Virus record (IMG/VR): IMGVR_UViG_3300027797_000012 | Coordinates: 66,554 to 130,553 of that record | Strand: one strand, 5' to 3' | Source of the DNA: a virus | Length of the DNA: 64,000 bases | Shown here: positions 1 to 17,391 of the stretch, one piece after another | How positions within the stretch are numbered: position 1 is the stretch's first letter | Layout of the letters: each line of letters opens with the position of its first letter | Program-made: the position numbers and the translations under genes | Notes under the pieces: generated by a model | What the model was told of the DNA's origin: nothing | The model's input: only the letters and a program-made list of their open reading frames with translations | Database searches by the model: none

Positions 1-2583
1 ACCCTCGTTGTAAACGTCAACGACGTTCGAGGCTCAGGAACATACGCTGTTTGGTCTATCAACCTTGACGGCGCAACTGGTGTTCAAGGCAACACCGGCG
101 TAACTGGTGCGCAAGGCGAAACTGGCTTAACTGGTAACACAGGCTTAACTGGTGCAACAGGTTTAACTGGTGTAACTGGCGCGACTGGCGCAACTGGTGA
201 TACTGGTGCAGTTGGTAACACAGGCGCAAATGGAAATACAGGCTTAACTGGTCTAACTGGTAACACAGGCTTAACTGGTAACACAGGAGCAGTTGGTAAC
301 ACTGGTGCACAAGGCGAAACTGGCGCAGTTGGTAACACAGGTGCGAATGGAAACACCGGTAACACAGGCGTAGCTGGTAACACAGGCGCAACTGGTCTAA
401 CTGGTATAACCGGTGATACTGGCGCAACTGGTGATACAGGCGCAGTTGGTAACACCGGTAACACAGGTGTAGCTGGTAACACAGGCGCAACTGGTCTAAC
501 TGGTATAACCGGTGATACTGGCGCAGTTGGTAACACTGGAGCACAAGGTCTAACAGGCTTAACTGGTAACACAGGCTTAACTGGTGCAACAGGCTTAACT
601 GGTGTAACTGGCGCGACTGGCGCAACTGGTGATACTGGCGCAGTTGGTAACACAGGCGCAACTGGTCTAACAGGTGCAGTTGGTAACACAGGCGCACAAG
701 GTAACACAGGCGCACAAGGTAACACTGGTGCAACTGGTCTAACTGGTGCAACTGGTCTAACTGGCGTAACTGGTGCACAAGGCGAAACTGGTGTAACTGG
801 TGCACAAGGAAATACCGGTGTAACTGGTGCACAGGGTAACTTCGGTGGTATCACCTTAGATTACACATTTGACACCAACACTACAGTTTCAGACCCAGGA
901 TCTGGAAAGCTTAAGTTTAACAACGCTAACCTAACATCTGCATCAACATTATCTATCGATGATCTTGATGATTCAACAGCAGACGTTCAGGCAATGCTTC
1001 GCACAATCGATGACTCTACATCAACAATCAAGGGCCACTTCCGTATTTCCCTAAAGGAAGATTCCAATACATTCGCGTTGTTCACAATCAGCGGTGTTAC
1101 AGAAGAAAGTGGCTACTTCCAGGTAGCGTCTTCATACGTCTCAGGTTCAGTAACATCATTCAGCAACTCTGCTGATGTTATCATTACCTTCGCACGTACT
1201 GGTGATATGGGTGCAAACGGACAGACTGGTGCGCAAGGTAACACAGGCGCAACTGGTCTAACAGGTTTGACTGGTAACACAGGTTTAACTGGTGCGACTG
1301 GTGAAACTGGTGCAGTTGGTAATACCGGTGCACAAGGTAACACAGGCGCACAAGGTAACACTGGTGTAACTGGTGCACAAGGTGCGACTGGCGCGCAAGG
1401 CGAAACTGGTAACACTGGCTTAACTGGTGCGACTGGTCTAACTGGTGTAACTGGCGCAACTGGTAACACAGGTGAAACTGGCGTAACTGGTGCGACTGGT
1501 GAAACTGGCGCAATTGGTAACACCGGCGCAAACGGAGCAACCGGTTCACAAGGTAATACTGGTGTAACAGGCGCGAATGGAAATACTGGTGCAACAGGTT
1601 TAACTGGTGCGACTGGTCTAACTGGTCTAACTGGTAACACTGGCGCAAACGGTATCTTCTCTACAGTTGATTCTTCTACGCCTGCTAGCCCAAATACAGG
1701 CGACGCATGGTTTGACCCAACAAACGGTTTAATGTTTGTTTACTACGATGGTTTCTGGGTTGAAGCAGTTGGCGGTAACGTTGGACCTACAGGTCCAACA
1801 GGGTCTGCCGGTAACACTGGCCCAACTGGAGCACAAGGTAATACTGGTGCGCAAGGTGTTCCAATTACACTTCTTGGATCTAAGGCAACAGTCGGTGCTC
1901 TTCCACCAACAGGAAACTCACTAAATGATGCGTGGATCGTCGATGCTGACGGAGACGTTTACGTCTGGAACGGCTCAAGCTGGTACAGCGCAGGACAGAT
2001 CGTTGGCGCAGTTGGTAACACTGGTGCGAATGGTAACACTGGTGCAACTGGCCAGACAGGTGCGAATGGTAACACTGGTGCAACTGGTCTAACAGGTGTA
2101 ACTGGTGCGACTGGTGAAACTGGTGCAATTGGTAACACTGGCGCGAATGGAAACACAGGCTTAACTGGTAACACAGGCGCTCAAGGCGAAACTGGTGCGA
2201 ACGGTAACACAGGCGCAACTGGTAATACTGGTCTAACTGGTAATACTGGAGCAACTGGTTCATCTGCTAACCTGTCGTTAACAACTAATGCGCAGACTGG
2301 TACAACTTACACACTCGTTCTATCAGATCTAAATAAACTGGTAGAGCTCAACAATGCATCTGCAGTAACATTGACAGTCCCAACAAATGCGGCTGTCTCA
2401 GGGTTTGCTGCCGGAGATCAAGTGCACCTACTACAAACTGGCGCTGGACAGGTAACTGTCGGTGGCGCTAGCGTTACAATCAATGGAACTCCAGGCCTCA
2501 AGCTTCGCGCTCAATGGTCTTCAGCAACGTTGATTAAGCGCGCAACTGATACATGGGTACTTATCGGAGACCTTTCCGCGTAA
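1..2583 (+). CDS. Collagen-like (G-X-T rich) fibre protein, 5'-truncated by the window edge
   Basis: Frame of ORF 994..2583 is open back to base 1 ([33 protein letters not shown]...). Long [15 protein letters not shown] triplet runs alternate with globular domains (FGG...[11 protein letters not shown]...FARTGD; GDAWFD...W; C-terminal TYTLVLSD...[24 protein letters not shown] typical of phage fibre ends). Confidence 0.85.
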
Positions 2584-2601
2584 GGCTAAATACTTAGCAA
2601 G

Positions 2602-16513: not shown

Positions 16514-17391
16514 AGAACGTCTGGGACGTTTATAGCGTTATACTTAGCTTCTCTAGTCTCCGGATCTGCTAATTCGTTGTACATCCACGTAGACGCGTCT
16601 GCGTTTTCAGTTAACGTAAGTACTCCGTATATCTTTCTATTGTCTAGGTACTGATCTACGTTGTTCTTTCTTGCTGACTCTGAGAATACCATGTATTCCC
16701 AGCGATCAGATTCTTCAAGGTAACTAAGAGTGCCAAGATGCTCTCGCTTAATTAAGTACGTGCAGTGCACGCAGTCAACCTTATGCGGCTTACGCTCTTT
16801 CTGATAAAGAATCTGATAGTAAACTGGTTCAGGTATTACCGATCCGTAGCTATCTACTATATAGTGGTAATTAGAATAGTAGCGTCCTTCATGTCCAGCA
16901 AGACGATCTTTTTGATCTTCGCTGTCTGGGTGCTCTGGTGTAGCTACCGCATACCTAAGCAGAGGCGCAACGATAGGGAGATCAAGCGCAACTAGTTCTT
17001 TAAGTGTTTCAGGGTATATAAAGTTATCAGCGTCAATAACAAAGTAGTAATCGCTACCGGCGCGTACAGCTTGACGCAGACTCTCTTGACGTATTTTACC
17101 GAGAACTCTAAATCGTTCTCCGTTCCATTCGTGCACTCCGTAATTTTCAACTTTAGTAGATACGTTTGAGCAGTCAAACAAGTAGTCTTGATACTTGTTA
17201 CCGTTGGCAGAAAGCCACTCACGAAGAATTTTTTCAGAGTTATCTGTATTGTTATTTGTTCTTACGTACAAAAATATCTTATCTTTAGGGTAGTCAAGCT
17301 CTTCTAAGGTTCTTAGAAACAGAGGAAGAACAGCTTCTTTTTGCTTAACAAGTATGGCTATAAATACCGTAGGAAGATCAATATCATTCAT
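16510..17391 (-). CDS. GT-A protein resembling the N-terminal domain of procollagen galactosyltransferase (COLGALT)/PLOD accessory domain
   Basis: PTVFIAIL.......LP.FL..LE.LDYPKDKI......N.DNS..ILREWL...RQ..L..A....DY.F.IDADN...TL..L......VAPLL...YSN...VH.TYLI. Confidence 0.7.
   Translation of the reverse strand: MNDIDLPTVFIAILVKQKEAVLPLFLRTLEELDYPKDKIFLYVRTNNNTDNSEKILREWLSANGNKYQDYLFDCSNVSTKVENYGVHEWNGERFRVLGKIRQESLRQAVRAGSDYYFVIDADNFIYPETLKELVALDLPIVAPLLRYAVATPEHPDSEDQKDRLAGHEGRYYSNYHYIVDSYGSVIPEPVYYQILYQKERKPHKVDCVHCTYLIKREHLGTLSYLEESDRWEYMVFSESARKNNVDQYLDNRKIYGVLTLTENADASTWMYNELADPETREAKYNAINVPDVL

Follow-up and report, generated by a model that had tools for sequence, protein, structure and literature searches.

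Where a phage carries glycosyltransferases (GTs), methyltransferases and a prolyl 4-hydroxylase (P4H)-like oxygenase directly behind its collagen-like fibre genes, the question arises which molecules these enzymes modify. Such a cluster fills positions 1 to 17,391 of the sequence analyzed here, a stretch of 64,000 nucleotides (the window) that covers positions 66,554 to 130,553 of the IMG/VR virus record IMGVR_UViG_3300027797_000012. The record comprises 130,553 bases and is rated 100% complete, and the window constitutes its final 64,000 bases. The sequence is that of an uncultured phage from a lake, as indicated by the complete virus record together with a distal tail protein (Dit) gene, a tape-measure-sized gene and a fibre gene with an S74 domain. 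A first-pass annotation had proposed that a single eukaryote-like toolkit glycosylates the phage's own fibres. We found that a first set of enzymes (module A) is linked to the collagens, that the cluster splits into two modules, and that the second set (module B) is an insertion; all three points are new. On balance, it appears probable that the phage enzymes modify the phage's own fibre proteins, i.e., the collagens and the Gly-rich protein rep734. Gene content, folds, motifs and synteny were observed directly; synteny and homology support self-glycosylation of the fibres, and from these we infer every chemical step and every substrate.

The plus-strand operon to which the cluster belongs starts ∼7 kb before the window and includes four collagen-like genes with products of 699, 713, 1040 and 555 amino acids (aa). 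Two of them lie just upstream of the window and had been overlooked in the first-pass annotation, and two lie inside it. The gene col1040 (1..2583, plus strand; its open reading frame (ORF) starts 539 bases before the window) encodes the 1040-aa fibre protein, which matches the Pfam Collagen family (E 1.6e-79) as well as PHROG tail-fibre families, e.g., phrog_6320 (9.4e-138), and contains five G-X-T blocks with 205 triplets, separated by globular domains. The second collagen-like fibre gene in the window, col555 (2712..4379, plus strand; Pfam Collagen, E 4.5e-34), has 76 triplets, none with Pro. Long unbroken Gly-X-Y runs, on which assignment to the collagen class (PF01391) was tested, are present in all four genes. 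Counting runs of at least four triplets across the four genes, we obtained 435 G-X-Y triplets, 305 of which carry Thr at Y. Pro occupies 22 of the 870 X/Y positions (2.5%), Lys, Arg and His are absent from them, and no charge pairs occur. The first-pass description of a Thr-dominated Y position with almost no Pro is thus accurate, and all genes named there, including both collagens and the repeat protein, were recovered in their places as ORFs with family matches. Glycosylation of Thr is a known third way to stabilize a triple helix (PMC3368898, in excerpt, citing Bann 2000). Since the usual stabilizers, Pro and charge pairs, are scarce or absent here, a glycan would, by analogy, probably stabilize the triple helix of these collagens besides coating it. 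Animal-type hydroxylysine glycosylation is excluded, because the 435 triplets contain no Lys.

The enzyme tied to such collagens by synteny is a fusion of a GT2 domain with a DxD motif, tetratricopeptide repeats (TPR) and an S-adenosylmethionine (SAM) methyltransferase (GT2-TPR; 14858..16513, plus strand; PF00535, 1e-5; TPR_2, 4.1e-7, residues 223-254; phrog_13126, 4.7e-71), in which D83 and D85 are invariant among seven sequences. A profile of GT2-TPR was searched, and the best 80 of more than 590 viral and the best 80 of more than 570 bacterial matches were analyzed. In 36 of 37 close loci, the gene directly after GT2-TPR encodes a further GT, GTA293; behind it, on the opposite strand, come WhiB, DenV and a methylase. 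The fibre genes on the upstream side of GT2-TPR vary. The profile search also yielded 63 further viral loci with 39-47% identity and a quite different genome layout. When dereplicated at 90%, these distant phage loci formed 29 clusters, 27 of which had at least 1.5 kb of upstream sequence. A collagen, defined as at least 20 triplets, was found immediately upstream of GT2-TPR in 16 of the 27 clusters and anywhere in the locus in 22. In the collagens of the distant phages, Y is Thr in 1211 of 1563 triplets. One distant phage has the collagen/GT2-TPR pair in its structural module among fibre-like genes, three genes downstream of the major head gene (phrog_1357, 1.8e-71).

The relationship extends to bacteria. 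Full-length bacterial relatives of GT2-TPR with 34-38% identity (80 loci) come mostly from Bacillota, and a collagen-like gene was present within 6 kb in 30 of the 80 loci and adjacent, mostly as a G-P-T type, in 21. When compared with random placement within the loci, adjacency was observed in 38 of 50 cases in phages (8.4 expected) and in 23 of 30 in bacteria (9.5 expected). The adjacency seen was not equalled in any of 200,000 simulations, which used loci that were not dereplicated and among which kin share synteny. In many Clostridia and Bacilli, GT2-TPR paralogues stand in tandem as twos or threes, in some cases next to very long collagens of the G-P-T type; a bacterial locus of this kind (L294) encodes a G-P-T collagen of 1393 aa with 399 triplets together with GT2-TPR paralogues.

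The first-pass annotation had suggested a check for co-occurrence of the GT families with G-X-T collagens across phage genomes. Such co-occurrence is seen for GT2-TPR in the distant clusters described above, but not for GTA293, which is confined to a lineage. Its 69 viral relatives belong almost all to the lineage of this phage, where they always adjoin GT2-TPR. A 296-aa gene that follows GT2-TPR in distant phages was considered as a counterpart of GTA293 and rejected (BLASTP E 2.9).

In the first-pass annotation, the hydroxylation and glycosylation genes were treated as one unit. The comparison of loci contradicts this point: there are two modules, and the GT60-family enzyme and the P4H-like oxygenase follow the small gene orf111 and Gly-rich proteins, not collagens. 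Seven viral contigs with a GT60 of 56-70% identity share the same order, namely collagen(s), orf111, a large Gly-rich gene, orf224, GT60, DUF6065, DUF6065 and P4H, and the longer ones continue with orf149 and the epimerase and then with a TPR-methyltransferase of another family. GT60 and P4H were co-located in 7/7 of these close relatives. We also compared 80 loci centred on orf224, whose relatives show 36-83% identity, with 8 kb flanks. P4H was present in 68 of them, DUF6065 in 67, orf111 in 47, where it immediately precedes the Gly-rich genes, and GT60 in 17; GT25 and GTA293 were each found in 0/80 and GT2-TPR in 1/80. The order orf111, Gly-rich, Gly-rich, P4H (one to three copies), DUF6065 recurs across 53 clusters. 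Only 11 of the 79 orf224-centred loci without GT2-TPR contain a Thr-rich collagen. Around DUF6065 (80 loci), GT60 was nearby in 13 and P4H in 15.

As read from these sequence comparisons, module A comprises the G-X-T collagens together with the GT2-TPR-methyltransferase, the GT-A enzyme resembling the N-terminal domain of procollagen galactosyltransferase 1 (COLGALT1), i.e., GTA293, the GT25 enzyme and the epimerase. Module B comprises orf111, two Gly-rich putative beta-solenoid proteins, GT60, two DUF6065 proteins and the P4H-like oxygenase. The arrangement of the two is illustrated by L172, the nearest relative by collagen sequence, which aligns to window positions 165-3100 at 81.5% and to positions 14858-23912 at 87.4%. 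Window positions 3100-14858 are replaced in L172 by only ∼3 kb with two unknown genes and a GT25-like gene, and module B is absent. Because L172 has both flanks with so little between them, module B is best read as an inserted cassette that separates the collagens from the enzymes of module A. The GC content of positions 7666-13383, from GT60 to the free methyltransferase, is 33-41%, compared with 45.7% for the window, and is lowest (∼34%) in GT25, GT310 and the methyltransferase, which is consistent with recently acquired cassettes.

Two enzymes of module A are related to the animal collagen-modifying enzyme COLGALT1. GTA293 (16510..17391, minus strand; 'DAD' motif read) is a GT-A enzyme homologous to the N-terminal domain of COLGALT1 (E 1.2e-22), matching residues ∼9-166 of the human protein. 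The GT25 glycosyltransferase (11276..11947, plus strand; PF01755, 4e-14) is kin of the catalytic domain and matches human COLGALT1 residues ∼300-445 (E 1.2e-5), so that both COLGALT1 domains have homologues here. One PHROG profile, phrog_61, matches GT25 with its positions 5-148 and P4H with its positions 438-633; since a single profile spans both parts, fused GT25-P4H forms are suggested to exist elsewhere. The gene following GT25 encodes GT310 (11931..12863, plus strand; 'DGD' motif read), a probable GT-A glycosyltransferase with only a weak match to phrog_1721 'galactosyl transferase' (1.5e-6) and none in Pfam or NCBIfam. It is followed by a free class I SAM methyltransferase (Methyltransf_24; 12799..13383, minus strand; E 3.2e-14) and by the GalE-like NAD-dependent sugar epimerase (14014..14823, plus strand; PF01370, 1.5e-22; TIGR01179 galE, 1.9e-33, below its cut-off). 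A DxD or DxH motif is readable in all five GTs of the cluster, and no NCBIfam family scored above its cut-off for any cluster enzyme. In a search of solved structures with the GT2-TPR profile, the GT domain best matched GmaR (1.3e-9) and SunS (6.1e-8), and the TPR part also matched consensus-TPR structures and the TPR of O-linked N-acetylglucosamine (GlcNAc) transferase (OGT).

In module B, orf111 (4399..4734, plus strand), a small conserved protein without a Pfam or PHROG match, heads the cassette. It is followed by rep734 (4734..6938, plus strand), a Gly-rich, adhesin-like protein of 734 aa whose N-terminus is paralogous to that of orf224 and whose centre consists of ∼22 units of 15-18 aa with the consensus ..NPNNAP[TK]YT[FY]TAG. 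Both terminal parts of rep734 and its large relatives are conserved, while the centre is hypervariable, of low complexity and rich in Pro, Tyr, Asn, His or Thr. In L121, L141, L146 and others, the ends are unchanged and the centre is extremely His-rich (runs like HHTHNHGH) or built of GNPHP or NYSYG units. The small Gly-rich protein orf224 (6952..7626, plus strand) is the best-conserved module B gene product, with 69-83% identity in five relatives. Its AlphaFold model has a predicted local distance difference test (pLDDT) score of 88.0 and is predicted to fold as a beta-solenoid; structural matches at Z up to 8.1 include pertactin, bactofilin and autotransporter passengers, and indicate only a generic beta-helix.

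The Gnt1-like GT60-family glycosyltransferase (7666..8895, plus strand) matches PF11397 'GlcNAc' (1.9e-26) and phrog_24687 (1.3e-30), and its motif reads 'IDSH' (D-x-H); a sequence search of solved structures returned no relative of it. The P4H-like enzyme (10320..10925, plus strand; PF13640, 2.7e-13) is a 2-oxoglutarate (2OG)-Fe(II) oxygenase resembling collagen-type prolyl and lysyl hydroxylases. Its best solved relatives are Bacillus P4H (6e-11), PBCV-1 P4H (1.4e-5) and the Mimivirus and human lysyl hydroxylases (∼1e-4). In an alignment with Bacillus P4H, the distal His and the Lys that binds 2OG fall on their counterparts, and an H-S-D triad was read with its first site in a gapped part of the alignment. 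Given the matches to COLGALT1, P4H and lysyl hydroxylase, the term eukaryote-like hydroxylation and glycosylation toolkit is fair as a description of homology. rep734 is a candidate substrate of both P4H and GT60. The three loci that have the full 8 kb downstream and no P4H contain the large Gly-rich proteins poorest in Pro (1.6-2.8%).

Between GT60 and P4H lie two paralogous DUF6065 genes (8840-9595 and 9592-10323, plus strand; phrog_7084, 1.7e-57 and 2.7e-36), which had also been overlooked before, as had orf111, orf224 and the small genes orf90 and orf149. DUF6065 is a large, mostly viral family (1178 matches among 1253 candidates). The model of a DUF6065 protein (pLDDT 89.6) gave a best Z of 9.8 with VIA-align, with a root mean square deviation of 2.9 across 124 residues. 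Of the 23 entries at Z≥5, dUTPases and dCTP deaminases account for 20, and the unrelated entries that come next score Z≤3.5. The model thus predicts a dUTPase-like fold. Foldseek gave no match in the PDB at E≤0.001 for the models of DUF6065 (best 1.1e-3) or orf224, the ESM Atlas returned only phage DUF6065 clusters without structure, and a sequence search found no match of DUF6065 to any solved dUTPase or other solved structure. Invariant residues include D174 and D176 in a G-I-V-D-x-D stretch as well as a Lys, a Cys, a His, a Gln and an Arg. We take the G-I-V-D-x-D stretch to be dUTPase motif-3-like, the only one of five catalytic motifs seen. Judged by these residues, DUF6065 looks enzymatic, though it is not a recognizable dUTPase by sequence.

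Several known systems resemble one or the other module. The closest architecture is that of SgtA of Clostridioides difficile, a cytoplasmic, Mn-dependent protein of 358 aa with a GT-A domain and TPR, whose gene adjoins bclA3 and which transfers beta-O-GlcNAc onto Thr of GPT repeats in vitro (PMC7157674, in excerpt). Compared by architecture only, GT2-TPR shares the order of GT-A and TPR and, in its phage and bacterial relatives, a similar size (345-372 aa) and in part of the loci the position of the gene beside a collagen with Thr at Y. It differs in that a phage fibre takes the place of a spore coat, that the collagens of this phage are of the G-A/N/L-T rather than the G-P-T type of BclA3, and that the window enzyme carries an additional C-terminal methyltransferase and lies 10.5 kb from the collagens. 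Among solved structures, the GT domain best matches Listeria GmaR, which combines a GT2 domain with TPR and puts GlcNAc on flagellin (PMC9638930, in excerpt), and SunS of SPbeta, a peptide S-glycosyltransferase. Both glycosylate proteins or peptides in the cytoplasm; their substrates, however, are flagellin and sublancin, and GmaR has an antirepressor domain where the window enzyme has its methyltransferase.

With the LH3/PLOD and COLGALT1 system the cluster shares homologues of both COLGALT1 domains and a collagen-type hydroxylase, and with Mimivirus and its L230 protein the combination of virus-encoded collagen-like proteins and candidate modifying enzymes (PMC4691112, in excerpt). In contrast to these systems, the collagens here contain no Lys, each of the two COLGALT1-like domains has a gene and a strand of its own, and the hydroxylase best matches prolyl hydroxylases. 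Virus-encoded glycosylation of the virus's own structural proteins is also found in PBCV-1, where a GT-A and an O-methyltransferase domain are combined in the a64r product (PMC4691112, in excerpt), and in mycobacteriophages; the solved relatives of the oxygenase include the PBCV-1 P4H. These viruses infect other hosts and modify other targets, PBCV-1 its major capsid protein and the mycobacteriophages their capsid or tail tube.

For module B, the nearest parallel is the protist Skp1 pathway. There, the cytoplasmic prolyl 4-hydroxylase PhyA and the GT60 enzyme Gnt1 generate hydroxyproline-GlcNAc. Both systems pair a soluble P4H-type oxygenase with a PF11397/GT60 enzyme, and further GTs could extend the glycan. 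Here, however, the sugar would go onto a fibre protein with repeats and a putative beta-solenoid fold, the cassette often lacks GT60, and two dUTPase-fold proteins are added. General family scans gave no match to Skp1 among the cluster ORFs, and no search aimed at Skp1 was made. In the literature, we found no paper that connects this pathway with bacteriophages.

A deposited relative of the same layout is the metagenome-assembled Actinomycetia phage DSL-LC01 (OQ999401.1; 129,469 bp). It contains collagens and then a GT2-TPR homologue (37% identity), behind which WhiB, DenV and a methylase are encoded on the opposite strand. In contrast to the window, it has a gene annotated as 'tryptophan halogenase', located before its GT2-TPR, in place of module B and GT25, and it lacks GTA293. 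The DSL-LC01 paper, its supplementary gene table aside, contains no occurrence of the word collagen and describes no fibre glycosylation (PMC10611076). In the DSL-LC01 locus (L354, 1443-10004), a protein of 2853 aa upstream of the collagens is annotated as 'ALK tyrosine kinase receptor'; this is probably a fibre protein rich in Gly that was given the wrong name by similarity. In our literature search, outside of which lay supplementary gene tables, neither glycosylation of collagen-like phage fibres nor a phage GT2-TPR/collagen pair was found described.

We propose that the region forms the distal half of an operon for phage fibres, with two separable systems that would act on the fibre proteins of the phage itself, in the host cytoplasm and before assembly. 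In module A, the TPR part of GT2-TPR would grip the collagen repeat, and the GT domain would add the first sugar to Thr at Y, which is probably an N-acetylhexosamine by analogy with SgtA and GmaR. GTA293, GT25 and GT310 might then extend the glycan, with the GalE-like epimerase interconverting the UDP-sugars that feed this extension, and the fused and free methyltransferases would cap it. In module B, the P4H-like oxygenase would hydroxylate Pro in the low-complexity centre of rep734, after which GT60 would glycosylate the hydroxyproline, as in the Skp1 pathway, or a neighbouring Thr directly. The two DUF6065 proteins are part of this cassette as well. The earlier claim that the phage enzymes glycosylate the phage's own fibres gains comparative support for the GT2-TPR family; GT60 and P4H travel with orf111 and the Gly-rich proteins rather than with collagens.

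A number of observations weigh against glycosylation of the fibres by the phage's own enzymes. No collagen was found in the locus in five of the 27 distant phage clusters, nor was a collagen-like gene within 6 kb in 50 of the 80 bacterial loci, and one and the same 90% GT2-TPR cluster includes loci with and without a collagen (L249 and L247, respectively). Because related loci are kin, the synteny counts do not represent independent events. In this genome, GT2-TPR is located 10.5 kb from the last collagen gene, a distance that the inserted cassette would account for; in L172, the closest relative, it is ∼3 kb. The confinement of GTA293 to one lineage means that there is no independent co-occurrence test for this enzyme, and its two distant relatives (L402 and L405) sit in other contexts with no collagen nearby. 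With regard to module B, the Pro content of the large Gly-rich proteins is 7.2% (n=9) with GT60 and 5.1% (n=31) without, a difference (p 0.002) that is confounded by relatedness. Collagen P4Hs act on Pro in an X-Pro-Gly context; the Pro residues of rep734 are mostly found in N-A-P-T/K-Y, not in X-Pro-Gly. Finally, GTs in phage fibre regions, like those in hypervariable regions of aquatic phages, are usually assigned to the modification of the host surface or of DNA (PMC7029224 and PMC10202952, both in excerpt).

The last point leads to the possibility that the GTs, the epimerase and the methyltransferases are auxiliary genes that remodel glycans of the host envelope, for instance so as to block superinfection or the re-adsorption of progeny, and that the fibres are unmodified. 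The GT25 and GT2 families do include lipopolysaccharide (LPS) enzymes (Pfam description and PHROG names), the DSL-LC01 paper treats such genes as auxiliary metabolic genes (PMC10611076), and the loci without a collagen as well as the low GC content, as acquired genes would show, fit this explanation. However, family scans of the cluster genes revealed no flippase, polymerase or priming transferase, and no segment resembling a membrane span was found in the cluster enzymes except for the Rossmann strand of the epimerase, which weakens the case for an envelope function. The TPR domain and the kinship with GmaR and SunS point to protein acceptors, the synthesis of envelope glycans has no use for a P4H-like protein hydroxylase, and the tight adjacency to collagens in two unrelated genome layouts and in bacteria would be unexpected for envelope enzymes. 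We therefore consider envelope remodelling unlikely.

Less likely still is that the enzymes glycosylate other virion proteins, such as capsid or tail tube, and that the fibre neighbourhood reflects late co-expression only. Glycosylation of mycobacteriophage virions is cited as established (PMC12582341, in excerpt), the host of this phage is probably an actinobacterium as well, and in distant phages the collagen/GT2-TPR pair lies near the major head gene. Such targets would leave unexplained, however, why a G-X-T collagen so frequently stands beside GT2-TPR and why P4H and DUF6065 follow Gly-rich proteins. Glycosylation of hydroxymethylated bases in the phage DNA, with DUF6065 acting on nucleotide pools, is very improbable: divergent thymidylate-synthase-family, P-loop kinase-like and C5-methylase-like genes do lie 2-16 kb away and DUF6065 has the predicted dUTPase-like fold with its G-I-V-D-x-D stretch, but the oxygenase is P4H- and lysyl hydroxylase-like with no TET/JBP family among its Pfam matches, most loci have DUF6065 lying among genes of the fibre type, and the relatives of GT2-TPR pair with collagens.

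If the fibres are indeed glycosylated by the phage's own enzymes, host recognition, particle stability and antigenicity in widespread lake phages would hinge on a sugar coat that is missed by sequence-based receptor prediction, and the usual reading of 'sugar genes' near phage fibres would change. The GT2-TPR/collagen gene pair offers a concrete, expressible enzyme-substrate candidate that ties phage fibres to the BclA/SgtA system of the spore coat and might open a route towards stabilizing Pro-free recombinant collagens. Likewise, with the cassette of P4H, GT60 and dUTPase-fold proteins, phage proteins would join the targets of hydroxyproline-type glycosylation. A broader proposal, which we regard as doubtful, is that in aquatic actinophages an animal-like collagen maturation kit, consisting of the COLGALT1-like pair, the P4H/lysyl hydroxylase-like oxygenase and an SgtA-like initiator fused to a methylase, puts methylated O-glycans on Pro-poor G-X-T fibres, where they would hold the helix and set the host range. 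Many 'LPS-type' GTs in fibre regions would then be fibre modifiers, the GT2-TPR/collagen pair an ancient mobile unit of phages and spore-formers, and DUF6065 a new class of protein-modification factors.

Two further small genes lie within the cluster. The product of orf90 (10995..11267, plus strand), directly after the P4H gene, has 90 aa and ends in (P-V-E-T)x6; the stretch conserved in L006 and L007 comprises the 64 aa at its N-terminus, and it could be a small substrate or linker protein. The gene orf149 (13370..13819, minus strand; phrog_9155, 4.9e-26) encodes a Cys-rich protein of 149 aa with a C-x2-C-x2-C-C motif and accompanies the cassette in L004-L007, L136 and L139. No Pfam match was obtained for it, and its motif resembles that of the YkgJ/FliB-type metal-binding family.

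The genome encodes a WhiB protein, which together with the shared layout of DSL-LC01, also predicted to infect such a host, suggests that the host is probably an actinobacterium. A megablast search of positions 7000-17400 against cultured and deposited phages gave no match, and a tRNA scan found none. Predicted promoters (32, compared with 31.9 in shuffled sequences) and terminators (17, compared with 14.1) were uninformative on the operon structure. The last 100 bases of the record recur at record bases 56-155, i.e., the record has a terminal repeat of ∼155 bases. On its minus strand, the window has a tail module of the siphovirus type with a 1367-aa fibre that has the S74 chaperone domain, the Dit protein and a tape-measure-sized gene of 1072 aa, as well as replication and nucleotide genes, namely PolA, an SNF2 helicase and a thymidylate-synthase-family gene. 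Positions 52379-63492 (minus strand), upstream of the tail genes, contain two very large ORFs of 1583 aa and at least 1940 aa; a Pfam scan of the former gave no match. Positions 19281-33325 (minus strand) include the divergent thymidylate-synthase-family gene, which scores below all thymidylate synthase equivalog cut-offs, the P-loop kinase-like and C5-methylase-like genes, and two unassigned genes of 339 and 405 aa.

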